DNA from: Malacoraja senta
Lineage: Eukaryota
Assembly: GCA_038087875.1 (NCBI GenBank)
Contig: CM075993.1
Span: 9,612,001 to 9,676,000, forward strand
Direction: 5' to 3'
DNA length: 64,000 nt
Notes under the pieces: generated by a model
Databases searched by the model: none
Seen by the model: only the letters and a program-made list of their open reading frames with translations
Told to the model about the DNA's origin: nothing
Position numbers and translations under genes: made by a program
In this document: positions 8,059 to 60,124 of the stretch, one piece after another
How positions within the stretch are numbered: the stretch's first letter is position 1
Layout of the letters: the number at the start of each line of letters is the position of its first letter

Positions 8059-8368
8059 AGTTTAGATTAGTTTTGAGATACAGCGAGGAAACAGGCCCTT
8101 TGGCCCACTGGGTCCATGCCGACCAGAGTTCCCCACATATTAACACCATCTTACACACACTAAAGACAAGTTTTACATTTACCAAGCCAATTTACTTACA
8201 TACCTGTACTTCTTTGGTGTGTGGGCGGAACCCAAAGATCTTGGAGAAAACCAACGTGTCACGGGGAATACGTAAAACTCCGTACAGACAGCACCCGTGG
8301 TCGGGATCGAACCTGGGTCTCTGACGCTACAAGCGCTGTAAGGCAGCAACTCTACCGCTGCGCCACCT
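8059..8368 (-). mobile_element. V-SINE (HE1-like)
   Basis: Same head, V-domain and tail as the other copies. Confidence 0.75.
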
Positions 8369-8379
8369 CGATTGGACTG

Positions 8380-9150: not shown

Positions 9151-9366
9151 CACACATTTCATCACATCAAATCTCCTAACGAGGCCTCCAACCTGATAGT
9201 GCCCAAACCCCGCACTTAAGAAACAAAATGCTGGAGTGACTCAGCGGGACAGGCAGCATCTCTGGAGAAAAGGAATGGGTGACGTTTCAGGTCGAGACCC
9301 CTGCCACCACTGCCGTGGTTGGACCGGTTTCTGTCTTCCTTTCTCCCAATTTTCCATCTCTCCCAC

Positions 9367-11275: not shown

Positions 11276-11309
11276 GCTCTCTATAGGAAGTTTTCCATTC
11301 CCGGTCATC

Positions 11310-17792: not shown

Positions 17793-18433
17793 CTGAAGGA
17801 GATACAAGGCACCATTACTGCACGCTGCCCGTGGTCAATCACACCCCAGGGCAAAGTGCAAAGAAAACGTATTTTTACAAGAACTGTTGAATATTCTGTA
17901 CAATTTTCTGATTTAAAGAGGAAGACATTTGCATTGAGGTGGAACTGTGGAGCCACACGAGCTGCTGTGTATTCTCATCCCTGGGAACCAACACGTGTGA
18001 GTCTGGGAGAGCGGTTCCTGCGTTGAGGTGAAGCTTTGTTCCTTATTCATACTTGGGATGTGGGTGATGCTGCCGGCCGTTCACTGACCACCACTATTCA
18101 CCCTCAGGAAGAGGCTGGGACACTGCAATCGGAGTGCTGAAGGTATTCTCAGCAACGTTAGAAGGGAGGCAAGGATCTCGTTGCAGTAACAATGATTAAT
18201 AGCACCACAGGGCCAGGTCAGGAATGGGGAGCAATGCTGGGAGATTTCAGTCTTGCGGTTGTCCGAGTGTGCATGGTTAGCACGGTAGTTGGTTAGCTTG
18301 TAACAACAACTTTTCACTGTACTCGGTACATGTGATAATAAACTAAACTGAACTGAAAAATTTGGGGAGCACAATCACTTGTACAAACTGCAGTCTCAGT
18401 ACGTTGTCTCTACCCATCCCCACAGTTTAGGTT

Positions 18434-18645
18434 GTGTAGGAAGGAACTGCAGATGCTGGTTTAAACCAAAGATAGACACAAAAAGCTGGAGTAATACAGG
18501 TCAGACAGCATCTCTTGAAAAAAGGAATGTGATATTTCGGGTCGACACTGGTGGGTCTGAAGAAGGGTCTCAACCCAAAAAGTCATTCATTCTTTTCTCC
18601 AGAGATACTGTCTGTCTACTGAATTACTCCAGCTTTTTGTGACAA
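18434..18645. mobile_element. Fold-back short element with a degenerate hammerhead core
   Basis: Inverted arms; CTGAAGA at 18557; flanking direct repeat cccacagtt(t/c)aggtt at 18419-18433 and 18646-18660. Confidence 0.65.
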
Positions 18646-20582: not shown

Positions 20583-20606
20583 AGAATTCACCCCCCCAAG
20601 CGTTGA

Positions 20607-20788
20607 TAGACAAAAGTGCTGGAGAAACTCAGCGGGTGCAGCAGCATCTATGGGGCGAAGGAAATAGGCAACGTTTCGTCCCGAAACGTTGCCTATTTCC
20701 TTCGCTCCATAGATGCTGCTGCACCTGCTGAATTTCTCCAGCACTTTTGTCTACCTTCGATTTTCCAGCATCTGCAGTTCCTTCTTAA
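20607..20788. mobile_element. Palindromic short element (72-bp arms, 3-nt loop)
   Basis: 20607-20678 is the reverse complement of 20682-20753 with 3 mismatches. Sister copies at about 30530 and 55482. Confidence 0.8.
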
Positions 20789-21419
20789 TCACCAAGCATT
20801 GGATTGTTCACCCACAAACAGGGAAGGTCAGCTGGAGTTAGACCGGGGTGAGACAGGGTTAGTTTTACCCCAGGGTAAATGGAGGGAGATGAGTCATGTA
20901 CGGACAGGCAAGTGATGGTCTTGGCATCATGTGTTGAACACAGGCACGGAAATCAGGAGTAGGAAAGCGGGAGCTCGCGGGTCCGGGTGGGAGACCGCTT
21001 TTCGGAGGCTCCAACTTTGTGACATTTAGACCTGGAGCGGGGCCGTACATCGCCCGGCGCGGCCTTAAATGGCCGTGGGACTTACCATCGCCCGCCTGGG
21101 GCTTCAACATCGGGAGAAAAATGGTGCAGGGGAGGGAAAAGACTTGCCTTCCATCACAGTGAGGAGGAGATTCACTGTGATGGCCGTGGGATGGATTCAC
21201 TGTGAGGAGGAGATTCACTGTGATGGATGTTTGTGTGAATTGAATTGTTTGTGTGTTTTGTAGGAATTGTTTTGTTTGTATGGCTGTAGAAACAGAGTTC
21301 CGTTTTGAGCCTCATTGAGATTCAAATGACATGGAATAAATATTGAATTGTATTGTATTGAACTCAGCGGGTCGGGCAGCATCTCTCAGAGAAGGAGTAG
21401 AAGGGTCGAAACCGAAACC

Positions 21420-22270
21420 CAGCCGGCATGAGGGGGAAGGGGAAGGGGAAGGAGGGGTTGACCGGTAGATTCAGCTCCGCGTCCCCGCCGGTGCCGGTGC
21501 CGGCTCCCCTCTCGGTCCCGCTCCAGCCGCCGGACCCTCGGACACGTCCACCCCCTCCCCCTTCCCCCTCCTCTCCATCCGCCGGCCGGGATGAAGCAGC
21601 AACTTTGAGGCTGCCCGGCCGACTAGGCCGCAGCCTCCGGGACCGGTCGCGGGACTCGGTGCGGTGGGTGGGGGGCGGCCCTGGCTCCGGTCCGGTCCCT
21701 CTCCCCGGTGCCTCTCTCTCTCTCTCTCTCTCCCTCTCTCTCCCTCCCTCTCCCTGCCCTCTGGCAGCCCGCGGCCCCGCTCCCGCCGCCTCTACCTGTC
21801 CTGTCCCGCCGCCGCCGCTCCTTCCCTGCACCGACCAGGCACTGCACCCGCCACACAGCGCCCCCTGTCGCCCAGGAGGAGTCCCCGCCACACAGCGCCC
21901 CCTGTCGCCCGGGAGGAGTCCCCGCCGCACAGCGCCCCCTGTCGCCCGGGAGAAGTCCCCGCCGCACAGCGCCCCCTGTCGCCCGGGTGGAGTCCCCGCC
22001 ACAGCGCTCCCTGTCGCCCCGGTGGAGTCCCCGCCACACAGCGCTCCCTGTTGCCCGGGAGGAGTCCCCGCCACACAGCGCCCCCTGTTGCCCGGGAGGA
22101 GTCCCCGCCGCACAGCGCCCCCTGTCGCCCGGGAGGAGTCCCCGCCACACAGCGCCCCCTGTTGCCCGGGAGGAGTCCCCGCCACACAGCGCTCCCTGTT
22201 GCCCGGGAGGAGTCCCCGCCACACAGCGCCCCCTGTCGCCCGGGAGGAGCCGACGGCCCAGCGGGGCATT
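21420..22270. promoter_or_regulatory. GC/CpG-rich island, candidate PSMA4 promoter region
   Basis: Sharp rise in GC and CpG about 1-2 kb upstream of the first visible PSMA4 exon, across a gap of unknown true size. Confidence 0.45.
21848..22250. repeat. 37-bp GC-rich minisatellite, about 11 units
   Basis: Unit ccacacagcgccccctgtcgcccgggaggagtccccg repeated with few variants. Confidence 0.95.
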
Positions 22271-24381
22271 TTCAGCTCCATATTCCCACCACTCCAGAAA
22301 CATAACCAGGTCACCATTATACCCAAGGTAGACACAAAGTGCTGGAGTAACTCCTCCACACTGCGCAATCTCCTCAAGTTATCCCTACTTTGAAAATGTT
22401 CTCCTATCAACGGCGAGCACCCTTCCATATCTCTCGTCTCCCTCTCCCCTAACTCTCAGTTTGAAGAAGGGTCTGGACCAGAAACGTCACCCATTCCTTC
22501 TCTCCACAGATGCTGCCTGTCCCGCTGAGTTACTCCAGCATTTTGTGTCTACCTTCTGAGTACACCAGCATCTGCAGTTCCTTTAGACACATTTTGTCTG
22601 CTCCACTGCAAAATCTCCTCATGGTATGCCTACTTTGAAGAAGTTCTCCGACGAACACACCATTATACCCAAGATAGACACAAAAGCTGGTCCACTCAGT
22701 ACATGCTGGCCATCGCTCAGCTGTTCACACTAGTTCTATGTTATCCCACTTTCTCATCCACTCCCTACACACGAGGGGCAATTTGCAGAGACAAATTAAC
22801 TTAAAAACCCGCATGTCTTTGGGCTGTGGGGGGAAACTGGAGCACCCGGAGGAAACCCAGGCAGTCACAGGGTGAATGTACAAACTCCACGTAGACAACA
22901 CCTGAGGTCATGATCGAACCAGAGTCTCTGGTGCTGAGCAGAAAATTTACTGCGCACAATATGTTGCCTGAGATGCATCTGTCTCCCTCTCTCATCAGTA
23001 AGTAGTTCCATCTTGATTAAAACTTTTATTAAACTATAGATTTCTTTTAGTATTCAGGCTGTAACAAAGTTTTCTCCACAGGAGCCTATTTACATCTTCA
23101 TTCCCTCCTTTCTCTCTTTCAATTTCAATTTCAATCACTCCTCCCAATGTTCCATCCGACGAGCATCTCTCCCTTTCACAGTTCTGACAAATAGTCACAT
23201 ATCCAAATTGTTGGCTTTTAAGATGATGTTGCATGTGGGAGGAAATTATCGGTATTATTTGGCCACATGTAATACACCGTGCCCAAGTATTGATAGTGTT
23301 CACCACCATGCATCGTAAACATGCAAACCCAACGAGTTATTGTCACACAGCATGGAAACAGGCCCTTCGGCCCAACTTGTTCATGCGGACCAAGATGCCC
23401 CGTCTAAGCTAGTACCCATATTTGTTTGGCCCATATTCTCTAAGACTGAGAGTCAGGGGAGAGGGAAACGAGAGATATAGACAGCGATGTAGGGAGATAT
23501 AGAGCAAATGAATGAAAGATGTGCAAAAAAGTAATGATGATCAAGGAATTGGTCGATTGTTGGCTGTGCTGGGTGTAAAACACATATGGCTGTGGTAACG
23601 AGTCTGGGTTAAAACGTGGTGGTGGAGCCGGAGAGATTTATATAACGGTGTAAGTGTCTTTTAAAAGCTGTAATAGTACCTGCCTCAACCACTGTACCTC
23701 TTCTGGCAGCTCGTTCCATGTACCACCTGCCTCTGAGTGAAAGAATTACCCCTCAGTTTCAAATTAAATCTTGTCCCTCTAAACTTCAACATATCTCCTC
23801 TGGCTTTTGATTTCCATACCCAGGAAAAAGACTCTGTATTCATCCTATCTATTCCTCTCAAGATTTTACACACCTTTATAGGATGCCCCTTCAATCTCCT
23901 CCGCTGCAAGGAATAAAGTCCTGCCTAACGTGCCTAACCTCTCCCCCTATTGAGACCCTCAAATCCTGGCAACATCCTTGTAAATCTTCTCTGCACTTTC
24001 CAGCTTAACAGTATCCTTCCTAGAGCAAGGTGAACAAAACCAAACACAATGCTTCAAAAGTGGCCTCACCAATGTCTAGTACAACTATCACATAACGCTC
24101 CAACTTCTATACTCAATACCCTAATTGATAAAAGCCAATGTACCGAAAGCCTTCTTGGCCACCCTATCTACCTGTGATGCCACTTTCAGGGAACCATGTA
24201 CCTGTCTCCAACTTGACATTACTTCTTTTTTTATTGCCCAATCTGAATTTCGACTCAGGTTAAAGAAAGATAGGCTCTTGCATTACTGAAACCTGCTGAG
24301 ATTTGCAAGTATCTTTTCCTTAAATCGACCTATAATTTGTTCCAGCGGGTCAGGCAGCATCGCTGGAGAACACTGATAGGT

Positions 24382-24409
24382 GACGTTTCGGGTCAGAACC
24401 CTTCTTCAG
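24382..24409 (-). ncRNA. Minimal hammerhead ribozyme-like motif
   Basis: Minus strand CTGAAGA-AGGGTTCTGACCC-GAAACGTC. Confidence 0.55.
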
Positions 24410-24619: not shown

Positions 24620-25020
24620 TAGTCCTAGGTCTCCTCTATTGTCAGAGTGAGGCTGAAAGCAAATTGGAGGAACAGCGAATGAATATTGATTTCTCTCACT
24701 TCAGGTAATCCCGGCATTCCCTCTCTATTGTCCCCCGCCCAAGTCACACCAACTTCTTGTTTTCACCCAACAAACATCTAACAATAGCCTGTTTCCTTTA
24801 TCATCACTACCTCTTTGCATATCTTTCATTCATTGTTCTTTATCTCTCCACATCATCGTCTATATCTCTTGTTTCCCTTTTCCCTAACTAGTCTGAAGAA
24901 GGGTCTAAACCCGAAATGTCACCCATACCTTCTCTCCAGAGATGCTGCCTGTCCCGCTGCGACTCCAGCTTTTTGTGTTGATCTTCATTTTAAACCAGCA
25001 TCTGCAGTTCCTTCCTACAC
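24620..25020 (+). mobile_element. Penelope-like 3' end with terminal repeat
   Basis: GLLYCQSEAESKLEEQ-like C-terminus, a pyrimidine-rich 3' region, then CTGAAGA (24893)…GAAATGTC (24913). Confidence 0.55.
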
Positions 25021-26574
25021 AACCTACAAACATGTATGCCTTTGGACTGTGAGAGGAAACCGGAGCACCTGGTGGAAACCCATGCAGTCATAGAGTCACA
25101 GTCATCTCATGATATCAGTATGAAAACAGGCCCTTCAGCCTAACTTGCCCACCAGCCAACATGTCCCAGCTACACTAGTCCTACCTGCCTGCGTTTGGTC
25201 CATATCCCTCTAAACATGTCCCATCCATGTACCTGTCTAACAGTTTCTTAAACTGGGATAGTCCCAGCCTCAACTACCTCCTTTGGCAGCTTGTTCCATA
25301 TACCCACCACCATTTGTGTGAAAAAGTTACCCCTCAGATTCCTATTCAATCTTTTCCCCTTCACCTTGAACCTCTGGTCCTCAATTCCCCTACTCTGGGC
25401 AAGTAATTCTGTGCATCTACCCGATCTATTCCTCTCATGATTTTACACACCTCTATAAGATCACCCCTCATCCTCCTGTGCTCCAAGGAATAGAGACCCA
25501 GCCTACTCAACCTCTCCCTTTCGCTCAGACCCTCGAGTCCTGGCAACATCCTCGTAAATCTTCTCTGAACCCTTTCAAGCTTGACAAGACAGTCACAGGG
25601 AGGATGTACAAACTCTGCAGTTCTGTGTCGATGAAATGAGCAAACATTTAAAGTTTCAGCAATTGTTGATAGTAAACTTTTATAATCGGAGTCACTGTCT
25701 ATGTGCTATAATGAGGAGGGATTTTTTAACAAATTCTACCAAAATATTTTCTGATTGTTTCAGAACTAAAGATGACCCGACGTAGTTCCAATCTGTTACC
25801 AGAGGAGGGCGCCTAGATCTGAACCACTAGATTGGATCACAGCACTGATCCTTGGGGCATCTTATATGGACCTATTCACAAAGCCTTGTAAATCTGAGCA
25901 AGAATTCAGCCAACTTCGTACAAGATCCGTGAGCTGCAGGGATTTCATTCAGTGGAGTTCCCGTCAGGTAGGTCAACATATGGACACGTGGTTCTTATAT
26001 TGTTGACCACAACCTGGGGCAGTTTTCTTGTTCAGTAATCAGCCTATTTGCATCTAAGATGCAAAAATAGAACATAAAAATATTTCTAGCTCTGCCTGAA
26101 AAGAGTCTATTTGGCCAAAGTAAAAGATTTATATTCTTGTCAAAATGTCTGAAACATTCAGCTCCCTGTGAAGGAGTATTAAGAAATTGATAAGGAAAGG
26201 GATAGGAGAATTAACGAGAAACAAGAAAACGCAATGTAATCACTTCCTTAGGTATGTGGAAAGAAAACAAGATGGCAACGGTTTTATTGCACCTGAAATG
26301 TTAACTATTTTTCTTTCTGTAGATGGTGCCTAACATGCTGAGTGTTTCTGGTATTTTGGGGTTTAATTATGGCATGATGACTTGGAATCTTCCACAGTGT
26401 CATTTGTTAACATCAATGGGCGGTTCATGTGTTGTAGGAATGGAGGTGAATGGGGCACGGTTGGCAGAATGCAGGGAAAGCAGCAACAAAGATAAAAAGA
26501 TTCCAACCTCCTCATGTTCCTTCTCACCTTAATCTCTAAATCCCAGAAGATAGACTCAAAATGCTGGAGTAACT

Positions 26575-29705: not shown

Positions 29706-30316
29706 CGTGGCAATATTGGAATTGCTCGGAGATCCATCAGTGAGTCAAGAACCGAGTTATAAGGTCATAAAATATAAGTGATAGGAGCAGAATTCGGCCA
29801 TTCGGCCTGTGGCGCCTTCACGCCCACGTTGGATTTGCGTACAGTCTGTCACCGTTGGCAACTCGCCAGCAGCCTCACGAGAAGGTCCAGCCACAAGAGC
29901 TCAATAACAACTCCAAGGTCAGACGCATTATTGGCCTTATCTGCACACTGGTTATGATTGGTGAGAATGTAGGTAAAAGGGGCTTCTGGAATAAACGTGA
30001 CACAAGGTGTCTGGCTCAGCTAAGTGTCGTTTGTTCTTTGCTTTTGTCGTGGGATTCAGTAGGTCCTACGGGACCATCAAGTCTACTCCGCCATCCCATC
30101 ATGGCTGATCTATCTCTCCCTGCTGGCCCCATTTCCTGCCTTCTCCTCTGTCGCACTTCCTTGTCTGGAAGTGTTCTAAATTCCTACCATCCCAGAAGCA
30201 CTGTAGTCCCGAATATCATTCCTGAAGGGTTGGCTCGGTTTGTGTTGTCCCATTAATGGACACAAAAAGCTGGAGTAACTCAGCGGGACAGGCAGCATCT
30301 CTGGAGAGAAGGAATG

Positions 30317-30350
30317 GGTGACGTTTCGGGTCGAGACCCTTCTTCAGACC
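30317..30350 (-). ncRNA. Minimal type I hammerhead ribozyme-like motif, intact core
   Basis: Minus strand GGT-CTGAAGA-A-GGGTC-TC-GACCC-GAAACGTC-ACC. Confidence 0.65.
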
Positions 30351-30529
30351 TCGTTAATGTTCCCTGTGCCTCTCTCTTGCTTTGCCCCCTGCTCCTCCAG
30401 CTGCAACCTAAGGGGGGGGGGGGTGGGGTGACGTCCCGGTTGGGTGGTCAGCTGACAGACGGCAACACACTAACCTCTGTGTCAGTGCCATAGATCAACA
30501 GCTTCAAACCAGAGCCTTGAGCTCTAGTG

Positions 30530-30713
30530 TTTAAGAAGGAACTGCAGATGCTGGAAAATCGAAGGTAGACAAAAGTGCTGGAGAAACTCAGCGGGTGCAG
30601 CAGCATCTATGGGGCGAAGGAAATAGGCAACGTTTCGTGCCGAAACGTTGCCTATTTCCTTCGCTCCATAGATGCTGCTGCACCTGCTGAGTTTCTCCAG
30701 CACTTTTGTCGAC
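30530..30713. mobile_element. Palindromic short element with a 15-bp TSD
   Basis: ccttgagctctagtg at 30515-30529 and 30714-30728; fold-back centred on acgtttcg-tgc-cgaaacgt. Confidence 0.8.
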
Positions 30714-33621
30714 CCTTGAGCTCTAGTGCACATTGGCCTGCCAGCACTACAGTGTGCTGTGTGCCAGATGTACGGACATACAAATGAGAGACTGTACTCA
30801 CCCCATCGGTGCCAAAAAAAACCCAAAGAGCAGTAACTTCCAGCTGGCAACCTCTCCAATACCCCTCCCTCCACCAGCACCACTGAAACAGACTGACTGC
30901 TGATTACAGAATAATTTTACTTGCAGTGTTTCTCTGTGTAATGACTGGAGTCATTGTCCATATTTCTTCTGGCGGTCCTATGAAACATCCTTCTTATAAT
31001 CCTGCCCACCTGAAAAGAATCATTTTCCTATATCAACGTCACCCACTGTAGGACGTGACTGCTGAGACAGCGTCCATCACCCTTGTGTAGGAAGGAACTG
31101 CAGATGCTGGTTTTACACCGAAGGTAGACACAAAATGCGGGGGATAACTCAGCGGGACAGGCAGCATCTCTGGAGAGAAGGAATGGGTGACGTTTCGTGT
31201 CGAGACTGCTTCTTCATCCATTCCTTCTCTCCAGAGATGCTGCCTGTCCCGCTGAGCTACCCCAGCATTTTGTGTCCTGCGGTGTAAACCAGCATCTGCA
31301 AACGCACACAGGTCTTGTACTGAAATACCAGTCACCTGGCCAGGCTCAATACAAGGTCATTGTGACCCCTCCTTGAGTTGGAGTATCTGCATGATCTTTC
31401 AGGAAATTCTTTTGTAGACATCTAATAAATTCTGCCTCGTCTACGCCTTTTACACCGAGTAAGTCCTGGTCAATATTGCAGAAGTTAAAGTCACCCATTA
31501 GACATTGTTGCATTACTATATTGTGTCCATATATTTGTTCCTCTATCTCCCACTGGCTACTGGGAGGTCTATAGTATAGTATAAGAGAGGATAAGTTGCT
31601 CTCTCTCTGGTTTTGTCAGTTACAGAGTGGCGATTCACGGAAATGTGCGTGCGCACTCTTCCTCAGATGGTAATAAGGTCACAAGTGATAGGAGCAGAAT
31701 TAGGCCATTCGGCCTATCAAGTCTATGCCATTCAATCATGGCTGATTTATATCTCCTCCTAACCCCATTCTCTTGCCTTCTTCCCATAACCTCAGACACC
31801 CGTACTAATCAAGAATCTATCTATCTCTGCCTTAAAAATATCCATTGACTAGGCCTCCACAGCCTTCTGTAGCAAAGAATTCCACCGATTCTCCACCCTC
31901 TGACCAAAGAAATTCCTCTTCATCTCCTTCCTAAAAGAACGTCCTTTAATTCTGAGGCAATGACCTCTGGGGAAGGAGGTGCCTGATGGAATGGGCAAGG
32001 TGTATACTCTGTGAGATGGTGTGCTCCTTCCATCTCTTACATAGACAGACTGTTTGACCCCCACCCCACCCCTCATGGCCATGAGCGTCTCAATACCATT
32101 CCAAATGCTCCTTCTCCACATTGGTCTGCCCTGGGTCAGAGATTCCCAGGAAAGTGGAGATACTGCATTTCTTTGAGGAGGCTTGATGCACATCCCAGAA
32201 CCTTTACCACTTGGTTGTATCTTCCCACAATGGAGCTCAGAACAAACTGAGTCAAGAGTCTTGGATTGGGATCACTTACTCAAACCCTTAGAAGGTGGGT
32301 TCAGCACAAGAGGTGAATGAGAAGGTTTAGGATGACACTGATGAGTGTTACACTGTCAGGGTGCTGTACTGTTGACAGATTAGCTCTGTGGATGAGGAGA
32401 GAAATATTCTGATAGGTAAACGATTGGGTCTTAGACATCGTTTAGTCCCCCAGGCATTTTCTTATTTCCCTATCTGAATTGGAGTTCCCTTTGCTCCTGA
32501 AAAACAAACATTTCCTTTGTTTAGTTTAGTTTAGTTTAGAGATACAGTGCGGAAACAGGCCCTTCGGCCCACCGAGTCCGCACCGATCAGCGATCCCCAC
32601 ACATTAACAGGGGTGGGAGATTGCAACCTTCACGTGGTCCACCTTGTTTCGACGAATGCAATTAACCCGGCGTGCACAATCAAATAAGATCAAATAGAAC
32701 AAGTTGTCTTACAACTTTAGGCTGTGCATGCCATATGCAAGAAGAACAACAGGAATGAGTGGGTTAGCGACTGATGAGCATTTGGCATCACTGGGCCTCT
32801 ACACGCTGGAGTTTAGAAGGTTGAAGGGGGACCTCATTGAAACTTTCAGAATAATGAAAGGCATAGATAGAGTGGATGTGCAAAGGATGTATCCACTGGT
32901 GGGAGAGTCTAGGACCAGAGGGCATAGCCTCAGAATTAAAGGACACTCATTTAAAAAGGAGGTGAGGAGGAACCTCTTTAGTCAGTGGATATAGGTAGTT
33001 AATCTGTGGAACTCATTGCCACAGAGGGCGGTGGAAGCCAAGTCAGTGGATAGATTTAAGGCGGAGATAGACAAATTCTTGATTAGAACGGGTATCAAGG
33101 GTAATGGGAAGAAGGCAGGAAAATGGGGTTAGGAGGCAAAGATCAGCCATGATTGAATGACGGAGTAGACTTGATTGGCCGAATGGCCTAATTCTACTCC
33201 TATAACTTGTGAACGTGAACATGTTGGCCGGAATGGGCAAGTTGGGCCGAAAGGCCTGTTTCCACACTGTATCACTCTATGACTCTAAATATATAATATA
33301 ATGATAATAGATCTCTCTGCCCAGAGAAGCATCTACTATCACCCTAATCTTTTACATCTCATTTTTATAAATCTAGTGTCATTCTTAACTATATTCTGCA
33401 CTGTCTAATCCTTTGCTCACCCTGTTGTACTTGGTTTTGATTGTAATTATGTGTAGTATTATCTGGCTTGATTGGATAACATGCAAAACTAAACTTTCCA
33501 CTGTACCTCAGTACATGTGACAATAGTAAACCTCAACCTAGATCTAAATTCAGCAGGTCCAGAGGGCATTTACCACTAAGAACAGACCACAGTTTGAGCG
33601 TTGGCATGACCTGCATCCTCG

Positions 33622-35118: not shown

Positions 35119-36589
35119 CCTTTTGTTGCGCAAATGTGAAGAGAGACATTGGTTGGCAAGAGAAGGATTTAATTTATTCAACTTATTGGGACAGAATATC
35201 TGGTGTGTGTGGCAGTGAGGTTGGTGAGTTGGAGGAGGATGGGAAGAACAGATTACCAGAGATACCTCAAGCTCTCCATCATTGTTTGTCTCACCTCATG
35301 CCTAGGTCTGGCTGATCGCTGCAATAAGCCAACAGGCCCATTGTCCCTCTATCACAATCCCAGAATGATCGATAAAGATTTCTTGATTCTTAAAATACCT
35401 TTTAAGTTCGAAATTCCTAGGAGCGCAGGAGGATGAGGAGTGATCTTATAGAGGTGTATAAAATCATGAGAGGATTAGATTGGGTACATACACAGAGTCT
35501 CTTGCCCAGAGTAGGGTAATCGAGAACAGAGGTGAAGAGGAAAAGATTTAATAGGAATCTGAGGGGTAACTTTTTCACACAAAGAGTGGTGGGGTTATGC
35601 AACAAGCTGCCAGAGGAGGTAGTTGAGGTTGGGAGGTAGGTACTATCCCAACCTTTAAGAAACAGTTAGACAGGTACATGGATAGGACAGGTTGGAGGGA
35701 TCTGGGCCAAATGCGGGCAAGTGGGACTAGTGTAGCTGGGACATGTTGGCCGGTGTGGGCAAGTTGTGCTGAAGGGCCTGTTGCCACTCTATGACTATGA
35801 AATACCAACATGCAGTTGAGCATAGAAGTTGTGAGGTTGAACAAGACATTTGTGAGGCCACATTTGGAGTATTATGTTCCGTTTTGGTCACCCTTTTATA
35901 GGATAGGTTGTTAAGCAGGAAAAGATCTCCTTCCATCCCAAACCACTCCCTCCCCAGGTACTTTTCCCTACAGCTGGTAGAAATGTACACCTGTCCCTAT
36001 ACCTCCTCCCTCGACTCCATCCAGGGACCCTGGCTGTCCTTTCAGGTGAGACAGCAGTTCACTCCTCTTCTCCTCTTATCTGATACCAATTTGCCAGCTG
36101 GCAATGCAGGGTATGGGCCTATTTTATTCCACTCAGCTGTGGTAACGTAGCAAGGCAGCATTCTCCAGCCGCTGGTAGATGGAGCAGGGTGACGCTCCCT
36201 CTCAGCGGCTGCAACCCCACATTGACCAGAACGACTCCAAAACTGGTTGTCGGAAGGGGAAGTGAACAGAACCCTGGGTCTGGACCAGGCACGTCGTGTG
36301 GAGATGGACCTCAGGAGAAGCTGCTTCTCGGATGGAACACCACGACTCCTCAGGAACTTTCCAAAAAATGTAGCCACAAATCTCAGGGGTAACTTTTTCA
36401 CACAAAGAGTGGTGGAGTTATGGAACAAGCTGCCAGAGGAGGTAGTTGAGGCAGCTACTATCCCAACCTTTAAAAGACAGTTAGACAGGTACATGGATAG
36501 AACAGGTTTGGAGGGATCTGGGCCAAACACGGGCAAGTGGGACCACTGTAGCTGGGACATGTTGGCCGGTTCAGACTGACATGTTCAGA

Positions 36590-36617
36590 CTGAAGAAGGG
36601 TCTCGACCTGAAACGTC
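36590..36617 (+). ncRNA. Minimal hammerhead ribozyme-like motif
   Basis: CTGAAGA-AGGGTCTCGACCT-GAAACGTC, antisense to HYKK in its last intron. Confidence 0.55.
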
Positions 36618-36742
36618 ACCCATTCCTTCTCTCCAGAGATGTTGCCTGTCCCACTGATTTACTCCAGCGTTTTGTGTCTATATTTGATTTAAACCAGCAT
36701 CAGCAGTTCCTTCCGACACATTCCCAAGAAAGATGATCTTAC

Positions 36743-36926: not shown

Positions 36927-37956
36927 CTAATGGTCGCAAAATGCGTTATTGTCTCAATGAGTGTACGTTGGTGGGAGTGAGCAAATGAGAACATAGAACA
37001 GTATAACACAGGAACAGGCCCTTCGGCCCACAATGTCCGTGCCGAACATGTTGCCAAGACCAAGTTTTATCTGCCTTCATATAATCCACTTCTCTCCAAT
37101 TCATGTGCCTATCCAATAGGCTCTTACCACTGAATGAAAGATATACAAAAACGTAACAATGAAAAAGGAAACAGGGCATTGTTAGCTATTTACTAGGTGA
37201 AAACAAAAAGCTGGTGCGATTTGGGTGGGGGAGGGATGGAGAGAGTGGGAAAGCAGGGTTACTTGATGTTGGAGAAATCAATACTCACTGGGCTGTAAGA
37301 TGCACAGTCTCTTGCCCTGAGTAGGGGAATCGAGGACCAGAGGACATAGCTTCAAGGTGATGGGGAAAAGATTTAATAGGAATCTGAGGGATAACTTTTT
37401 CGCACAAAGGGTGGTGGGTGTATGGCACAAGCTGCCAGGGGAGGTAGTTGAGGCTGGGACTATCCCAATGTTTAAGAAATAGTTAGACAGGTACATGGAC
37501 AAGACAGGTTTGGAGGGATATGGACCAAGCGCTAGCAGGTGGGATTTGATGTAGCTGGGACATGTTGGCCAGTGTGGGCAAGTTGGGCTGAAGGGCCTGT
37601 TTCCACACTCTATCACTCTATAACTCTAATGTGACTGTGCTGACAGTGTTTACACCTCTGGATGTAAGCACACCAACCAGTAGCGCTGCAAAGGCATAAA
37701 ATGACCTCGGAGATGATAATTTCTAACACAGAAGGATGACATTCCACCCATGGATACTGAAGCAGTTAATATTCTCTTGCCCGAGAAGGAGAGATGACAA
37801 TGGACTGTGTGGTATTCAGAGGAGAATGTGGCAGTATAAACCAGCAAAGCCGGGTCACACAAACGTTTAGTAGCTCAGTGAAGGCCTCCACTGTTGCAGT
37901 CCTGAGTATACAGTATGTCGACAAATATAATACAGGTGAGGAATATAATACAATAC

Positions 37957-42220: not shown

Positions 42221-43757
42221 ACACCCACTTTTATACCTTTCTCTGGCAGCTCGTTCCATATACCCACCACCCTTTGGATGAAAATGTTGCCCCTCAAGTC
42301 CCGTTTAAATGTTTCCCCTTTCACTTTATACATGTATCCTTCTGTTTTAGAGATCCTTACCCTGGGAAACTGTGACCATTCACCTTAACTATGTCTCTCC
42401 TGATATTATATACCTCAATGAGGTCACCCCTTAACCACCAATGCTCTAGAGAAACAAATCCCAGCTTATCCAATCTCTCCTTTCAATTCACGCCATCCAG
42501 TCCCAGTATATTTTCCACACCTTTTCCAGCTTATTGACATAGAATGATTGTGGCAAGGCTTGTCAGCTTTAGTGGGCTGCAGAGCAAAGTCGGGCAGTGT
42601 CACTGGAAACGTTGCATCCATCCCCAATAAGCTCAATGCATTCTGTGCCAGCTTTGTACAGAACGGTGGCATCAACCACCCACCGGCGTGCCTATACCCA
42701 CAGTTACTGTCGCAGATGCCAGATCGGTGTCGCCGAACGTGGAGAGCAGCTGGCCCAGATGGAGTCCCCAGCCGCCTCCTCTGCACCTGAATATACCAGC
42801 TGGCAAGAGTGTTCACAGACTATTATATATCTCCCCCACCAGCTTCTCGTTCTCACCCAGCCAACAGCCAACAATGTTTCTTTTATCATCGTTACTTTTT
42901 TGCATATCTTTCATTCATTGTTTTTTTATCTCTCTACATCATCGTCTATGTCTCTCGTTTCCCTTTCCTGTGACTTTCAGTCTGAAGAAGGATCTCGACG
43001 CGAAACGTCACCCATTCCTTTCAAGATACAAGATTCAAGAGAGTTTATTGTCATGTGTCTCAGATAGGACAATGAAATTCTTGCTTTGCTTCAGCACAAC
43101 AGAATATAGTAGGCATGAATACAGAACAGATCAGTGTGTCCATATACCATTATATAAATATATACACACATGAATAAATAAACAGATAAAGTGTAAATAA
43201 ACAGATAATGGGCTATTAATGTTCAGAGTTTTGTTTGAGTTGAGTGTAATAGCCTGATGGCTGTAGGAAAGTAGCTATTCCTGAACCTGGACGTTCCTTC
43301 TCTCCAGAGGAACAGCCTGTCCCGCTGAGATACTCCAGCATTTTGTGTCTATCTTCGGTTTAAACCAGCATCTGCAGTTCCTTCCTACATATATACAGAC
43401 AATAGTCTTTAACCTCTCATTCCTCCATTCTGAGGTTCCCACCTGTTTTAAGAAGACTACTATCATCCTGGTGCCAAAGACAAGCAAGGGAGATGCCTGA
43501 ATGACTACAATCCGATGTCTCAGACATCCAATACCTTTGAGAGGCTGGTCATGGTGCACGTGAAGTGCAGCCTCCCAGACAGCCTTGATCCACTGCTATT
43601 CACCTAGCGTCACAACAGGTCCATGGCAGACATCATCTTCCTGGCCCTATGGTCATCCCTGGAACATCTGGATAACAGGACACCCACATCAGACTCCTAT
43701 TTGTTGACTATAACAGTTCTTTCAACACCATCATTCAACTGAACCCATCTCCAAGCT

Positions 43758-43955
43758 GCGTAGGAAGAAACTGCAGATGCTGGTTTAAACCAAAGGTAGG
43801 CATAAAATGCTGGAGTAACTCAGCGGGACAGGCAGCATCTCTGGAGCGAAGGAATGGGTGACGTTTCGGGTCTGAAGAAGGGACTTGACACGAAACGTCA
43901 CCTATTCTCTCCAGAGATGCTGCCTGTCCCGCTGAGTTACTCCAGCATTTTGTGT
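43758..43955. mobile_element. Fold-back short element with a hammerhead core and a 13-bp TSD
   Basis: CTGAAGA at 43872 and GAAACGTC at 43892; ccatctccaagct at 43745-43757 and 43956-43968. Confidence 0.7.
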
Positions 43956-44121
43956 CCATCTCCAAGCTCCTGGACCTGGGAGTCAGCACCCCATCTGCAA
44001 CTGGATCCTTGCCTTTCTAATCCAGACAACAATGAGCAACTAAATGTGACAAAACATGCTCAGTGATAATTCCGGTTCTTCAAGGATGTGTTCTCAGCCT
44101 CTCACTATACTCCCTAAACAC

Positions 44122-48750: not shown

Positions 48751-51729
48751 CAAGACAAGATGGAGTACAGGAAGGAGGTAGTGAGCTTAAGAGGGGGTTG
48801 TCAAGACAACAACTTCTCCCTCAATGTCAGCAAAACAAAGGAGCTGGTCACTGACTTCAGGAAGCCTGGTGGAATACATGTCCCAATCAGCATCACTGCT
48901 ACTGAAGTGGGAAAGATCGAGAGCTTCATATTACCAGTTTAACCGAAGATAGGCACAAAAAGCTGGAGCAACTCAGCAGGCAGACAGCATCTTTGGTGAG
49001 AAGGAATGGATGACGTTTCAGGACGAGCGGTGTGGATGTGATTAAGGCTTTCAAAAGACATTTGGACAGAGACTTGGCGAGGAAGGGTTCAGAGGAATAC
49101 AGGCCACATGCATGCAAATGGAACAAGCCCAGAATGGCAACATGGTCAGTACGGACAATATGACCTGATCAGGTTACATTGAATGGATCAGAGCCAGTTA
49201 TAGGATCAGTCAGAACCGTTCGCGGAGCTCGGATGCGGCCGCTGGACTTACCATCACCCGGCGGGGTCCCAACATTGGAAGCCTGGATCGCCACAACGCA
49301 GAGGGAGAATAAGGAGGGAAGAGACAAGGACTTTAAGACTTTTGCCTTCCATCACAGTGAGGAGGTGCCTGGTAGACTCACTGTGGTGGATGTTAAACTG
49401 TTTCATTGTGTGTTTTCTTATTTTATTCTATGTTATAACTGCAAGGTTTACAATTTCGTTCAGACTGAAATGTCTGAATGACAATAAAGGATACTTTACT
49501 TTTACTTTACTTCATTTGAGGTCCAAATGATAATAAACGGTATTGTATTGTATTGTATTGTATAGTGGAGCGATGGGAATGTGAGTGGGAAGAGTGGGAG
49601 ACGCAGCAATAAACATTCTCTGAACCACTACAGTTTATTATGGTTGATCATGTTTCACTCCTCAAAGGCAACTTCACTCCAACTTTTGTGCCTTTCTAGC
49701 TTCTTCATCCAGGACATCATCTTAAGTTCCATCACATTCTATCTGCTGCAGATAGACACAAAAAGCTGGAGTAACTCAGCGGGTCAGGCAGCATCTCTGG
49801 AGAAAAGGAATAGGTGATGTTTTGGGTCGAGTTCCTTCTTCAGACATTCTATCTGCTGTTTGTGTTCATTGTTGGATTACTGATCAATGACATTTGTGTC
49901 TCAATATGTAACTGGTCCCAAAGGACTGAAGAATCTCTCTAAATTTGTACTTGACTTTGTTTCCACAGACTGTGTGAAAATTAAAGTCTTCATAGAGTAG
50001 TCACAGTGAATTTCAAATAACGTTCTCCGATTCCCAGCGTGTGTTCTTCAACCGCTTGCACAGAGGATCCAAATCTTCAAAGTTATGCTTCTTTTCTCAT
50101 TCCTCGCTATCACCCAGAGTTTCATTTTCCTGCTTCCCCCTTACGACAGTTTACAGAACGTTCAACTGATGTAGATTTGTTTAGTTTAGAGATACAGCGC
50201 GGAAACAGGCCCTTCGGCCCACCGAGTTACAGAAGCCTATTAACCCACAAACCCACTCGTCTTTGGAATGTGGGAGGAGACCGGAGCAGCGGGAGAAAAC
50301 TCACAAAGTCACAGGATGAATATGCAAACTCCACACAGTCAGTACCCGTAGTCAGGATCAAACCCGGATCCCTGGCGCTGTAAATATCTTCAAAAATATG
50401 GCCTGTCTTTTATTTAATCAATCCTGTCATATTTTAATGAGTGGTCTTGTTATAATTTCATGTATTGTTTTCTGAATCTGGTGAATTTAGCACCATTGCA
50501 ATTTACATCTTGCTTGTATTGCTGCTTTTGTCATCGGTATTGTTTCTGTCGGACTTCCCTTCCTGTTCAGAGCCCTTTCCATAGTTCTGTTTGTCCTGAC
50601 CAGGCCGGAATCAAAGCTAGTCCCACACGTCATGCCTTCCCGTGGCAGAAAAATGAATTCCACTTATCTAAAAATAAATCCTTCTGGAAGCTGTTTGCTT
50701 TCCTCATTTGCTAAGTCACTCTGCGCGATTGTTTAGGAGGGCTGGCCTCTCAGTTCATTCCTATCTCTTCACTTTCTCTCAGTGGCACATCCCCACACCA
50801 GTGATCCCAGCGTGGACTGTAACAACCCATTTGCTCCGTTCTTTTGTGGAACGCCACTTTGAGGTATTATGCCATGTGTACCCAGATAGACATCACACCT
50901 TTCAGGACTTCATAAGATCATAAGTGATAGGAGCAGAATTAGGCCATTCGACCCATCAAGTTTACGCCATTCAATCGTGGCTGATCTATCTCTCGCTCCC
51001 AACCCCATTCTCCTGCCTTCTCCCCATAACCTCCGACACCAGTACTAATCAACAATCTATCTATCTCTGCCTTAAATATATCCACTGACGGCCTCCACAG
51101 CCTTCTGGGGCAAAGAATTACACAGAGTCACCACCCTCTGACTAAAGAAATTCCTCCTCATCTCCTTCCTAAAAGAACGTCATTTAATTCTGAGACTTGA
51201 ACTCTTCCCCTTGTGGAAACATCAACTCCACATCCACTCTATCCAAGCCTTTTACTATTCTGTACATTTCAATGAGGTCCCGCTCATTCATCTAAACTCC
51301 AGCGAGTACAGGCCCAGTGCCGTCAAATGCTCATCATATGTTAACCTACTCATTCCTGGGCTCATTCTTGTAAATCTCCTCTGGACCCTCTCCAGAGCCA
51401 GAAAATCCTTCAATACCTTCTGACCTTCTGGACCTTCTGAATTTTGTAGGTGGCAGGGCAGTACTCTGCATATCGCCATCTTGGACAATTTTAACATTTT
51501 TTTCAAGCCAATCTAATTAACCTACAAGCTAATTAACCTACAAACCTGTACGTCTTTGGAGTGTGGGAGGAAACCGAAGTTCTTGGTGAAAACCCACGCA
51601 GATCACGGGGAGAACGTACAAACTCCATACAGACAGCACCCGTAGTCAGGATCGAACCTGGATCTCTGGCGCTGCATTTTGCAGTAAGGCAGCAACTCTA
51701 CCGCTGTGCCACCGTGACTGCCCTATATT

Positions 51730-54900: not shown

Positions 54901-56217
54901 CTTTCTGCACCCTCTTCAAAACCTCCATATCCTTTCGGTAATAGGGCAGCCAGAACTGCACTTAATAACTAAACTACTCCAAATACAGCTGAACCAAATA
55001 CCTATATAGCTGCAATGTGACGATCCAATGTTCCTACTGATGAAGGCAAGTATAGCATATGTCTTCTTTCCCACTATCTAATTATGTTGCCACTTTCAAG
55101 GAGCTATGGTCTTGGACCTCGATAACCCTCTGCACTTCAATGCTGTTAGGAGGACTTGCCATTAACTGTAAACTTTCCACTTACATTGACTTCCCAAAGC
55201 GCAACAACTCACACTTACTAGGATGAGACCCCATCTGCCATATCTCACCCATTTCTGTAGCTGAGCTATATCCCGTTGTATACTTTGGCATCCTTCCTCA
55301 TAATCCTCAACTCCACCAATTATAATGTTGTCTGCAAATTTATTAACTAACCCATCTACATTTAAGTCCAAGGTAGACAAAAATGCTGGAGAAACTCAGC
55401 GGGTGAGGCAGCATCTATGGAGCGAAGGAATAGGTGACGTTTTGGGTTGAGACCCTTCTTCAGACTACATTTAAGTTCAAGGTAGACAAAAGTGCTGGAG
55501 AAACTCAGCGGGTGCAGCAGCATCTATGGAGCGAAGGAAATAGGCAACGTTGCCTATTTCCTTCGCTCCATAGATGCTGCTGCACCCGCTGAGTTTCTCC
55601 AGCACTTTTGTCTACATTCGATTTTCCAGCATCTGCAGTTCCTTCTTAAACATTTAAGTCCAAGTCATATATCCTGCTTGGAGTGCATACTGTCGTTGTG
55701 TCCTTGGGCAAGACACTTCACCCACCTTTGCCTGCGTGTGAATGTTGATATGTTGATATCAACATATGGATATGGATAATTCTCTGTAAAGCACTTTGGT
55801 TTCAAGTGATTTGATTGAAAAGTGCTATATAAATACAAATATTATTATTATATATAAGTCACAAGCAACAGAGGTCCCAGCTTAGATCTCTAGTCACAGA
55901 CCACCAGTTAGAATAACACCCTTTCATTACAACCCTCTGTCATTTATGGGCAAGCCAGTTCTGACTCCAAACTATCACCTCACCATGGATCCCATGCATG
56001 TTAATCTACTGTAGCAACCTACCATGAGAGACTTTAATAAATGCCTTGTTAAAATCTATGCAGATCACATCCTCATCGATCACCTGCATCACCACTTTCA
56101 AATAAAATCAATCAAATCTGTAAGACATGACCTGCCATGGACAAAGCCATGCTGATTGTCCCTCGTTGTCCCATTCTCCCCCAAATGGGAATAAATCCTA
56201 TCCTGAAGAATCCTCTC

Positions 56218-56679: not shown

Positions 56680-57777
56680 CTCTCCAACAGCTTCCCAACT
56701 ACGGGTCTCACCAGCCACAATCTTCCTGGATTCTCTCAACTTCCCTCCTTAAGCAAAGGAGCAACATTAGCTACACCCAAGTCCTCTGGGACCTCACCCG
56801 TTGCTGGAGAAGATGCTATAATCTTAGTCAAGGCTCCCTCTCAATAACCTGCGATAGATCCCATCAGGTCACAGGGAGTTATCCACCTTGATGCTCTTCA
56901 GGAGCCCAAACACAACCTCCTTCTGATCTCAAACTCCCCTTCTCCACAATGATCTCACTGTCCTCCATGTCCTGCTCCTTAATGAATACAGATGCACAGT
57001 CCTTATCTAGGACTTCACCTACATCCTCTGACTCCAAACATAGATTCCCTCCTTTATCCTCGAGTGGTCCTTCTCCCTCCTTGTTTACCCTTTCGTTTTT
57101 AATGGATGACCAAAGAGGTTGAAAATTGGTCGTTGGAATTTTCTTTAATCCTGCTCGCCAATTACATTTCATAGCTGCTTTTGGCCCTTCTAATTGCCCG
57201 CGTAAGTTCTTTCTTGCTTGATTTATATTCCTCAAAGCCCTGTCAGATTTTATTTTTCTGCCGTAAATACGGTTTTTTTTTACCAATTTTACAACCTCTT
57301 TGGGTCATCCAAGGTTCCCTTAACCTGCTGTCCTTATCCTTCCTACCTACAGGAACATGCCAGTCCTGTACTTTGATTAGCTGGTGTTTAAACAACTCCC
57401 AGGTTAGATGTGGACTTACCATTAACAACTGCTTCCCATTTACTCCTCCTGGCTGTTATCAGCCTTACCCCAATTTAGCACTCCCCCAATGTCCAGCCTT
57501 ACCCTTATTCGTAACTATCTTCAAACATATGGAGGAGTGATCACTGTTCCCAAAATACTCTTCCACTGAAACACCAAACACATTTCCAGACCTATTTCCC
57601 AACAGAAGGTGCAGTACAGTACGTCCTGTGTTCGAGTTTCAGGAAACTCTCTTGGATACAACTAAAATAATTCTGGCCTGTCCAAATCGTTTCCACCGAA
57701 CAAATCCCAGTCAGTGTTGGGGAAGTTTAAGTCGCCCACTACAACAACCCTGTTGTCTTTGCATCAATGTACGTCGT

Positions 57778-57805
57778 CTGAAGAAGGGTCTCGACCCGAA
57801 ACGTC
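57778..57805 (+). ncRNA. Minimal hammerhead ribozyme-like motif, intact core
   Basis: CTGAAGA-A-GGGTC-TC-GACCC-GAAACGTC. Confidence 0.6.
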
Positions 57806-59919
57806 ACCCATTCCTTCTATCCAGAGATGCTGCCTGTCCCACTAAATTACTCCAGCATTTTGTGTCTTTCTACATATCAGTCCCTCTATTTAGTTTAGAG
57901 ATACAGCACGCCGACCAGGATACAATAATAATAATAATAATAATACATTTTATTTATGGGCGCCTTTCAAAAGTCTCAAGGACACCTTACAAAGTTTAAC
58001 AAATAGTAGAAACATGTAAGCGGAATGAAATAAATAGTAAAGACATCATGAGTACACAAATTAAAGAGAGAATTCAATCCAAAAACAAAAATCAAAAACA
58101 CAATAACACCATGCTACACCCACTAGGGACAATTTACATGTATACCAAGTCAATTAACCTATAAACCTGTACGTCTTTGGAGTGTGGGAGGAAACCGAAG
58201 ATCTCGGAGAAAACACACGCAGGTCACGGGGAGAATATACAAGCTCCTTACAGACAGCACCCGTAGTCAGGATCGAACCCGGCACTCCGGCGTTACATTC
58301 GCTGTAAGGCAGCAACTCTACTGCTGCACCACCATCATCTTTTAATATTGTTCTCCTCTGACTGCACTTTGGAATAAATCCTTTCCCTTCGCTCAAGGCG
58401 ACGCTAACTTGCAAAGAATTTGAACTGGAATAAAGAACGCCAAGGTGACTTTGAGGAACCCAGGGCTCCATGGCACACAGACCCTCGCCTGCACCGTTAC
58501 TGTTAAATATAATTGCAAAACAACTGTAAACAAAACCCAGGTAACAACCCATAATCACCCCACTGATCAAGTCATGAAAATAAACGTACCCGTTTAGATT
58601 TGTGATTCTCGCCTCGGACTTCTTTAAATTAGCAGTCACTTTGGAAAAGATCCACAATTTAGCTTACATGGCTTCTGTCCAATACAAACGCAGATTTCAA
58701 CTTATTAAATTTAACTCTTTGTGAACCAACTAGAAGTATTTGTTTAGCACGGTTTGACCCGGGTTCAATTCTGTCTACGGGTGCGGTCTGGAAGGACAGT
58801 TCTCCCTGTGACCGCGTGGGTTGTCTCCGGGTGCTCCGGTTTCCTCCCACACTGTTAGAGCATGGAGCAACATTTTCGTGGATATTCCCCACCCCCTTCA
58901 GGAACGATCCAGATCATCTCATTCTTCATCTCTTTTCCCATGGTTGTTAAATAATTTCTCCCGCAAATATCAATCACACTGAAAACGTTGAATGAATCAG
59001 CATTCATCTCACCCTCTGGCCATGAGTTAGTTCTAGATCATGACTGCCTGCAATGTTCCTTTTATTCAAATCAAGCCCCAGCCGCACCCTTCTGCCAACA
59101 AACTCAATTCCTATCCTCTGGTTCTTGGGCTCTGTATTGTTTTTCACTTCCTTTAGATCCGCTAAACACTTCTAACAAATCCTCTCTTACCCTTCCCAGT
59201 TAGCTGATAGGAAGATGTAAACTATGAGAGGCATAGATAGGGAACACTGTCAGAACCATTTTCTCAGCGTGTAAATGGCAAAGACTAGGGGGCAAAGTTG
59301 AGGTGAGAGGGGCAAAGTTTGAAGGAGATGTGCGGGGCAAGTTCTCTTTACACAGAAGGTGATGGGTACTTGGATCGAGCTGCTGGAGGTAGTCGTTCAG
59401 GCAGATAGGTTAGTGGTGATTAAGAGACATGAATAGGCACAAGGATATGCAGGGAATGGAGGGAAATGGATTATGTGCAGGCAAATAAACATTGGTCATG
59501 GGACATGGTCATGAAGCGCACCTGGAGCGGGGCTTTATCCCCCCGCGCGGCTTGGAATGGCCACCGGACTTTGCGGGCGCGCGCCGGGGCTCTAACACCA
59601 AGACCCGGTGCGCGACCTTGCATCACCCGGCGTGGCTTTAATGGCTGCGGGACAATCACCATCGCCCGCCGGGGGCTTTGACTTTGACTCTGACATCGGG
59701 GGGGGGGGGGGAGTGCAGTGGAGAGATACGTTTTTTTGCCTTCCATCACAGCGCTGTGATGGATGTATGTGTAAATTGTGTTGTGTCTCGGGTCTTCTTC
59801 GTTTTGTATTGTATGGCTGCAGAAACGACATTTCGTTTGGACCTCAAGGGGTCCAAATGACAAATTTGTCCAAAAGACAAATAAAATTGAATTGAATTGA
59901 ATTGAATTGAACCAACCTG

Positions 59920-60120
59920 CATTTACACGGATTCCCCCAATTGACTGACCACACGTCACCTGGGAACCTACAAACCGCCAGCTGTCTGCCCTCCACAGCC
60001 TTCAACCTTATCTTTCCCCAGCCCAGCATGGCCTGGTTTTACCTTCTCCTCAAAATCCATAAACAGAACTGTCCTGGCAGACCCATTGTTTCTGCCTCAT
60101 CTGTCCCACTGAATTCATTT
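59920..60120 (+). mobile_element. Penelope-like RT fragment
   Basis: FYLLLKIHKQNCPGRPIVSA matches the PLE RT N-terminal motif (FYxLPKIHK…RPIVS). Confidence 0.65.
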
Positions 60121-60124
60121 CCTC

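Follow-up and report, generated by a model that had tools for sequence, protein, structure and literature searches.

Short hammerhead-bearing repeats in Malacoraja senta are probably terminal pieces of a Penelope-like element

In a 64,000-nucleotide stretch of the Malacoraja senta genome (the window), a dispersed repeat contains the core of a hammerhead ribozyme. We consider it probable that this repeat is the hammerhead-bearing terminal segment of a Penelope-like element, likely of the Neptune type, and that its short copies are decaying insertions that likely derive from the 5' end of uncleaved RNA. The first-pass annotation had taken the short units for a family of self-cleaving retroelements in their own right; they are actually pieces of an autonomous Penelope-like element with a reverse transcriptase (RT) and a GIY-YIG endonuclease.

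The hammerhead motif, its fold and its conservation

Sequence inspection showed that all 12 positions at which the repeat had been placed do contain it. The motif as originally spelled out, however, omits the A that follows CTGAAGA, and in that form it has no matches at up to 3 mismatches. The true sequence is CTGAAGA-A-GGGT-CTCG-ACCC-GAAACGTC-ACC. The original count of at least 12 repeats was too low: searching with the sequence downstream of the motif (the tail) found 27 arms in the window, 3 of which are short weak matches. The expectation of a high copy number was borne out, as the exact 31-base motif is present 13,276 times in the 1.94-Gb genome (6,560 + 6,716), while the reversed control has 0 matches. 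The same tail-anchored search found 296 arms in a 664-kb sample, which comprises the window and 60 fixed-coordinate stretches of 10 kb; small contigs and the ends of contigs are overrepresented in this sample, which prevents a genome-wide estimate. A family-independent hammerhead descriptor had 118 distinct matches in 1.16 Mb (a set that includes loci picked because the motif was present) and 0 in the reversed sequence. The repeat is thus far more abundant than expected by chance.

A relaxed hammerhead pattern had 890 matches, against 9 in the control. No divergent hammerhead families surfaced among the first 100 of these matches listed, nearly all of which look like mutated members of one lineage. 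Rfam searches (E up to 10) returned 25 weak matches, none of them at the gathering score and none to a hammerhead. Among the sub-threshold matches were microRNA and plastid families at the fold-backs 20627-20734, 30586-30693, 31148-31258, 43821-43936 and 55498-55599.

The focal motif was described as follows.

30347-30320, minus strand: focal hammerhead motif, with predicted cleavage between 30320 and 30319
30320..30347, minus strand: minimal hammerhead as read from the sequence, with CUGAAGA, A, stem II GGGU/ACCC, a CUCG loop, GAAA, loopless C15.2-G16.2, U16.1, C17 and stem I GU/AC

The first proposal, a minimal type I hammerhead like those in Penelope-like elements, is right, and the motif fits the consensus line in supplement file 2 of PMC4209133. 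All 118 descriptor matches satisfy the core (CUGANGA, GAAA and UH), and 109 of them have an unpaired A between positions 9 and 10.1, before stem II. The G10.1-C11.1 pair at the base of stem II is present. The proposal that stem III is the loopless palindrome ACGU also held up: CG occurs at 15.2/16.2 in 118/118 matches, with a descriptor that permitted any complementary pair there. The proposed cleavage triplet, GUC, is found in many copies, but a second form has GUU (position 17 is C in 81 and U in 37 of the 118 matches). Two of the stems needed to be redrawn. Stem II had been given as 5 pairs on a 2-base loop (GGGTC-TC-GACCC) and is better described as 4 pairs, GGGU/ACCC, closing the 4-base loop CUCG. 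Stem I had been given as GGU/ACC and is actually 2 pairs, either GU/AC or GU/GC. (Positions relative to C3 of the core are given with a sign.) Where a copy retains upstream sequence of its own (109 copies), the base at -3 is mostly A (100 copies) and sometimes G (4 copies), and the GGT at 30348-30350 is junction or flank sequence. Across the descriptor matches, the number of contiguous stem I pairs is exactly 2 in 88, 3-4 in 7 and fewer than 2 in 23.

Between the two main forms of the motif, U-A becomes U-G in stems I and II, and position 17 changes from C to U. All of the stem changes between subfamilies are one-sided (U-A to U-G), and we saw no two-sided pair change, so these differences fit the fold but fall short of two-sided covariation.

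Folding predictions do not favor the hammerhead. The best folds of the monomer pair the 5' arm with the tail instead, with a probability of at most 0.01 for stem II. When we looked in the monomer folds for a longer or alternative stem I, this pairing with the tail again came out best (z-scores of 0.79 to -1.76). For two molecules, the double hammerhead at one site is predicted at -9.4 to -12.7 kcal/mol, versus -29.9 to -37.4 kcal/mol for the best co-fold, which places it 17-27 kcal/mol above the optimum. Because these energies disfavor the hammerhead fold, activity is uncertain even in the source element. A competing hairpin is predicted between GAAGAAGGGU and the bases past the cleavage site. 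In the window (30316-30347) and at another locus (L106:838-870), the four bases after the cleavage site duplicate the sequence of stem II's 3' strand, and between subfamilies the initial base changes in both of them together. The 5' strand of stem II therefore has two possible partners, which could reflect a switch or chance.

The core differs less among copies than the tail does. In 114 copies of the main subfamilies, GAAA and U16.1 differ at 11/449 sites, as compared to 190/2217 A/T sites in the tail, or 142/2106 if subfamily-diagnostic sites are left out (p 3e-4). Similarly, CUGAnGA differs at 8/168 sites versus 112/1122 in 28 long copies (p 0.03). In two smaller subfamilies with diagnostic sites dropped, the lower divergence of the core was not significant (p 0.24 and 0.15). 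None of the 12 non-CpG sites with a shared alternative base falls within the core: 11 are tail sites and one is a loop 2 site. G12, which lies within a CpG, is changed in 32/112 copies, and other CpG sites are changed in 151/770. The entire core is retained by 26/87 near-full copies. This pattern suggests that the source elements are under constraint and that inserted copies decay neutrally, but mutation context or alignment bias could also explain it. The short copies likely do not cut RNA at their present locations.

Could the hammerhead be vestigial even in the source element, and be retained as a promoter or priming signal rather than as a catalyst? Stem I has just two pairs, GAAGAAGGGU can pair with the post-cleavage bases, and the templates of the short copies appear to have been uncleaved (see below). 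In addition, PMC4209133 describes low in vitro activity and no cleavage of the monomer, and Naiad elements spread without hammerheads (PMC8557442). But every subfamily retains all of the core bases, the unpaired A, G10.1-C11.1, the CG palindrome and H at position 17, even though 3' UTRs and tails differ between the subfamilies that retain the core. Also, helix I has two pairs in published examples from D. virilis, Culex and Oikopleura (PMC4209133). On balance, we think that a vestigial hammerhead is unlikely.

The parent element

Two of the copies in the window reach into other parts of the element.

24622..25021, plus strand: long 3' fragment with an internally deleted GIY-YIG end, 3' UTR, the degenerate hammerhead at 24893 and tail to +130; 82% identity to locus L002 over 443 columns
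22421..22649, plus strand: 40 bases of 3' UTR, the degenerate hammerhead at 22461, and tail into the start of the open reading frame (ATG at 22626)
22317-22405: short inverted pieces beside the copy at 22421..22649

The copy at 24622-25021 extends upstream into a reading frame, and 19 other long loci share an upstream stretch of a few hundred, at most about 1,200, bases. The upstream frame of the long copies ends in a GIY-YIG domain (PF01541, 22.7 bits, with a cut-off of 22.6). A protein search with the adjacent piece yielded 150 scored matches from 24,448 candidates, and we chose 20 loci with long open frames. One of these (L081) has a frame of 782 amino acids with RVT_1 (E 3.5e-6) and GIY-YIG (E 4.4e-4) domains, both slightly under the curated cut-offs; in another (L082), RVT_1 is above the curated cut-off. 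L081 also has a DKGG motif and a C-x4-C-x2-C linker, and the hammerhead motif lies about 120 bases past its frame.

The motif is found at the other end of the element as well. Among 22 loci with the 5' part of the open reading frame, 9 have the motif upstream of the ATG, at 163 bases in 6 cases and at 126 bases in 3 cases, and the shorter spacings are due to internal deletions. (Among the rest, 4 are truncated below the motif, and the ATG region is missing from 9.) Most of the loci with the motif before the ATG are preceded by a variably truncated upstream copy. At one locus (L103), the frame continues from the ATG into the reverse transcriptase with one stop. In full-length partial tandems, the motif follows the stop codon of the upstream copy and precedes the ATG of the downstream open reading frame by 163 bases. 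This arrangement identifies the "tail" sequence in short copies as the 5' UTR of the element.

We found a reverse transcriptase together with a GIY-YIG at the C terminus in one open reading frame, partial tandems (pseudo-LTRs) with the hammerhead at both ends, inverted 5'-truncated partners, and target-site duplications, which are the features of endonuclease-containing (EN+) Penelope-like elements. The source is likely a Penelope-like element of the Neptune type, as judged by the cysteine-rich linker. A cysteine-rich linker between the RT and the endonuclease is the criterion for Neptune, and the Nematis clade has it too (PMC8557442, PMC3846280).

We also considered whether the ribozyme might lie inside a coding exon, with a start codon before an intron. 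We discarded this idea because in the second subfamily that frame contains a stop, because the start codon only comes 163 bases downstream, and because the predicted spliced junction has 0 genomic matches.

The window contains other remnants of mobile elements. An older, divergent Penelope-like copy (8295-9105, 11257-11764 and 11992-12063, plus strand) has 39-44% protein identity to L081; it is split by later insertions and ends in a degenerate tail. Further internal fragments of the parent element itself, without the motif, lie at 35929-36075, 37128-37306, 23457-23582 and 59986-60122. The minus strand at 60492-63946 carries a LINE, apparently frameshifted, whose two long frames (692 and 518 residues) contain endonuclease and RVT_1 domains.

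The short copies and how they may have arisen

Most copies are solitary or head-to-head, and the short copies consist of the motif and about 60-105 bases of the 5' UTR. Other copies in the window are as follows.

30256..30349, minus strand: focal short copy, which begins 2 bases before C3 and has about 64 bases of 5' UTR; 95-98% identical to long copies
57776..57871, plus strand: short copy with an intact core (57778-57805), which starts 2 bases before C3
24343..24410, minus strand: short copy with intact core bases, a short tail, and an inverted tail piece upstream
36586..36722, plus strand: intronic short copy with intact core bases and no stem I, antisense to the APH/hydroxylysine-kinase-like gene
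42837..43392, plus strand: 3' UTR and a hammerhead whose stem II is broken (42837-43020), plus a tail piece (43294-43392); likely a single copy that was split by a later insertion
43757..43961: head-to-head pair; the minus arm (43872-43757) lacks CUGAAGA and the plus arm (43870-43961) has a broken stem II
18433..18641: head-to-head pair in an intron of the proteasome alpha-subunit gene; the gene-sense arm lacks CUGAAGA and the other arm has G12 changed
30526..30709: fold-back pair of the second (GUU-type) subfamily, joined within stem II; both arms lack CUGAAGA
20605-20792: fold-back pair nearly identical to the pair at 30526-30709
31084..31300: head-to-head pair with a damaged core
49750..49845, minus strand: short copy with G12 changed; its target-site duplication has 15 bases and overlaps the first bases of the element
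55361..55655: short copy (55466-55361, minus strand) with G12 changed, adjoining a fold-back pair (55479-55655)
9219..9300, minus strand: copy truncated inside the motif, which starts at +8 and lacks CUGAAGA
48934..49027, minus strand: copy truncated within stem II

The core is intact at 30320-30347 (minus strand) and 57778-57805 (plus strand), as originally reported. Four other copies had been called near-intact. At 24382-24409 (minus strand) and 36590-36617 (plus strand), the core bases are indeed intact, but stem I has one pair or none; at 42982 and 43872, stem II is broken. The six copies that had been described as degenerate deserve the name, as each either lacks CUGAAGA or is changed at C3, G12 or C15.2. 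The focal copy has no target-site duplication of 8 or more bases (the best is 6). The fold-back pairs at 20605-20792 and 30526-30709 are 96% alike over 184 bases and lie 10 kb apart in opposite orientation. Since the pair at 20605-20792 is near a run of 200 Ns, a local duplication or an assembly artefact is possible.

Copies had also been reported within introns, and this is correct for 36586-36722 (in the kinase-like gene) and 18433-18641 (in the proteasome gene). Both the proteasome alpha-subunit gene, which was identified from weak Pfam matches in 4/79 frames, and the APH/hydroxylysine-kinase-like gene are on the minus strand. None of the 5 intron-mapped arms has an intact core in the sense of the host gene: the arms are antisense or lack CUGAAGA. 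The copy at 36586-36722 ends about 20 bases from a splice donor. Neither the pair at 18433-18641 nor the pair at 20605-20792, which is upstream of the first coding exon that we found for the proteasome gene, contains an intact core. (Also upstream of the proteasome-subunit exons is a GC-rich 37-base tandem repeat at 21773-22305, with about 11 copies.) The focal copy is in the sense direction, about 3.3 kb beyond the stop codon of the kinase-like gene.

To locate the ends of the copies, we used the 664-kb tail-anchored sample, with 293 copies after 3 at the ends of stretches were dropped. The 5' ends are at -5..-1 in 78 copies, at -10..-6 in 21 copies and beyond -10 in 46 copies. Just 7/293 begin at +26..+30, around the predicted cleavage site, and there is no peak there. 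Of the 92 copies that start at -10..0 and have a recognizable core, 47 have unique flanks, 32 have an inverted partner, and 13 share upstream sequence (some of these 13 belong to a subfamily that is absent from the references we used). Similarity among the copies with unique flanks fades from -1 to -6, so the start point is blurred, also by microhomology. The 3' ends (n = 283) fall mostly in two places, at +85..+99 in 120 copies and at +120..+134 in 105 copies. Target-site duplications of at least 8 bases flank 16/62 simple copies, versus 1.1% of shuffled pairs, although one or two of the 16 are doubtful. Many copies start at the edge of the motif, there is no peak at the cleavage site, and many copies have duplications. 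They were likely copied from uncleaved RNA to its start.

A transcript that starts at the edge of the motif would be the simplest reading of the fixed 5' end. YYANWYY is the consensus of the Initiator and YAG is the consensus of the 3' splice site. An Initiator-like YYANWYY is present at the start in 93/109 long copies, and the same number have YAG at -4..-2, after a pyrimidine-rich stretch, which makes a 3' splice site just as good a reading of these bases. We looked for an untemplated G derived from a cap and did not find a significant excess (7/14, p 0.07; 8/16, p 0.29). Contigs of four runs from three organisms, which we can only guess to be RNA, contain relatives of the repeat. Measured on L106, in which C3 is base 838, their loose ends fall at 832-837, 922-928 and 966-968; they mirror the DNA boundaries and show no transcript end.

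We propose that the endonuclease would nick the target DNA and that reverse transcription would then be primed about 90 or 130 bases downstream of C3. It would reach the 5' end of the RNA at the Initiator-like YYAGTCT just before the core. Joining at the RNA 5' end would yield a stub, and a jump to the RNA 3' end, which bears the same motif, would yield the longer copies. In the source element, a single tandem transcript would contain two motifs, and these would pair with each other through ACGU and give weak dimer cleavage, as the literature suggests. Solitary stubs would have no pairing partner and would not be maintained.

In LTR retroelements, minus-strand strong-stop DNA is a short cDNA copied from the 5' end of the RNA, and the terminal repeat that it contains could direct a jump between templates. 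The stubs might be integrated products of this kind, with an Initiator at the 5' edge of the ribozyme, two fixed priming sites in the uncleaved 5' UTR, and the hammerhead of about 31 bases as the terminal redundancy for the jump to the cleaved 3' end of the RNA. In contrast to the strong-stop DNA of LTR elements, the stubs would be primed at a nick in the target DNA and would themselves be integrated. We put this forward tentatively, and would not be surprised if it were wrong.

The same element could instead acquire its sharp 5' edge from structure or splicing: on full-length or circular RNA, the RT might drop off or switch to target DNA where the ribozyme fold has its far edge, or where a spliceosome occupies the 3' splice site. 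The YAG and the pyrimidine-rich stretch before it are as expected for a splice site, and in D. virilis the Penelope intron ends at the 5' end of helix I (PMC4209133) and the element starts 46 bases upstream of its intron (PMC2377424). If the short copies arose from spliced RNA with a common first exon, then their 5' flanks should share it, but the flanks match no shared segment of the element. The junction from the one candidate donor that we tested has 0 genomic matches, and no GT..AG skip ending at the YAG appeared among the run-contig joints listed. As for structure, an RT stalled by the fold should stop on the 3' side of the fold, at about +20..+30, and no peak lies there; nor is the hammerhead fold predicted to be stable. 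We doubt that structure or splicing accounts for the edge.

Finally, the short units could be an active non-autonomous family, similar to retrozymes or SINEs, that is transcribed, cleaves itself as dimers, and is copied from its own RNA. The copy number is very high, and the copies have defined ends and target-site duplications. Short direct tandems do occur: one local two-unit duplication (L050) among 30 loci, and, at L044 and L137:7058-7250, tandems of a 66-base tail unit that begins with GAAACGTC and lacks CUGAAGA. Retrozymes have also been reported as derivatives of Penelope, including in one cartilaginous fish (10.64898/2026.07.22.740005). However, there is no tandem array of the unit in the window, the subfamilies of the stubs parallel those of the autonomous elements, and the core decays at the rate of CpG sites. 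Nor do the copies start at the cleavage site, as would be expected for cleaved or circular monomers. We consider a non-autonomous family to be very improbable.

Related elements and implications

The closest parallels are the minimal hammerheads of metazoan Penelope-like elements (Cervera and De la Pena 2014, PMC4209133), which have the same CUGANGA-H, G10.1-C11.1, GAAA, loopless C15.2/G16.2 and UH. The layout CUGAAGAA...C G U C is common to our motif and to the Takifugu, cichlid and Xenopus rows of that study. As in those elements, the motif is in both terminal repeats and occurs mostly as dispersed singles from truncated elements. In contrast, stem I has 2 pairs here versus 3-6 in most of the published rows, and stem II, with 4 pairs, is shorter than most. 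The 13,276 exact matches compare to about 4,000 motifs in the coelacanth and about 9,000 in Xenopus (PMC4209133), and we found no row for a cartilaginous fish in supplement file 2 of that paper. Minimal hammerheads are described there as showing no cleavage as monomers and low cleavage as dimers, and a review relays the dimer cleavage (PMC6765202).

Like the Neptune EN+ elements described by Craig et al. 2021 (PMC8557442), the parent element has a single open reading frame with RT, a CX2-5CxxC linker and C-terminal GIY-YIG, as well as pseudo-LTRs in partial tandem, an adjacent inverted 5'-truncated copy, and a tail past the motif. Unlike those elements, it continues for 60-105 bases beyond the motif rather than having a tail of 30-40 bases, its open reading frame has a long proline-rich N-terminal part, and no preference for (TA)n targets is apparent in the flanks that we viewed (uncounted). 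For Penelope-like elements, self-priming has been proposed for head-to-head junctions, and solo pseudo-LTRs and an Initiator-like site have been noted (PMC3846280). Non-LTR retrozymes are also non-coding, hammerhead-bearing derivatives of Penelope pseudo-LTRs, but they form tandem repeats with the hammerhead in at least 2 consecutive units (10.64898/2026.07.22.740005), while the copies in M. senta are solitary or head-to-head and about 95-135 bases long.

Minimal hammerheads in the terminal repeats of Penelope elements, and dispersed single truncated motifs, have been known since 2014 (PMC4209133), so as a ribozyme finding the repeat adds little. The family may already be catalogued in repeat databases; literature searches on Penelope and Neptune elements in skates, and on a strong-stop or template-jump mechanism for them, returned no papers. 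As these repeats give rise to spurious matches to microRNA families, they should be classed as Penelope fragments.

The replication of Penelope-like elements has been described as unresolved (PMC8557442, PMC3846280). Models of how these elements are copied are limited by three features: a fixed start at the edge of the ribozyme, 3' ends at two fixed places, and an absence of ends at the cleavage site. If the short copies are indeed integrated strong-stop products, this would account for the partial tandems, the tails and the retention of the ribozyme, and the stubs, in their tens of thousands, would preserve an intermediate in the replication of a Penelope element.
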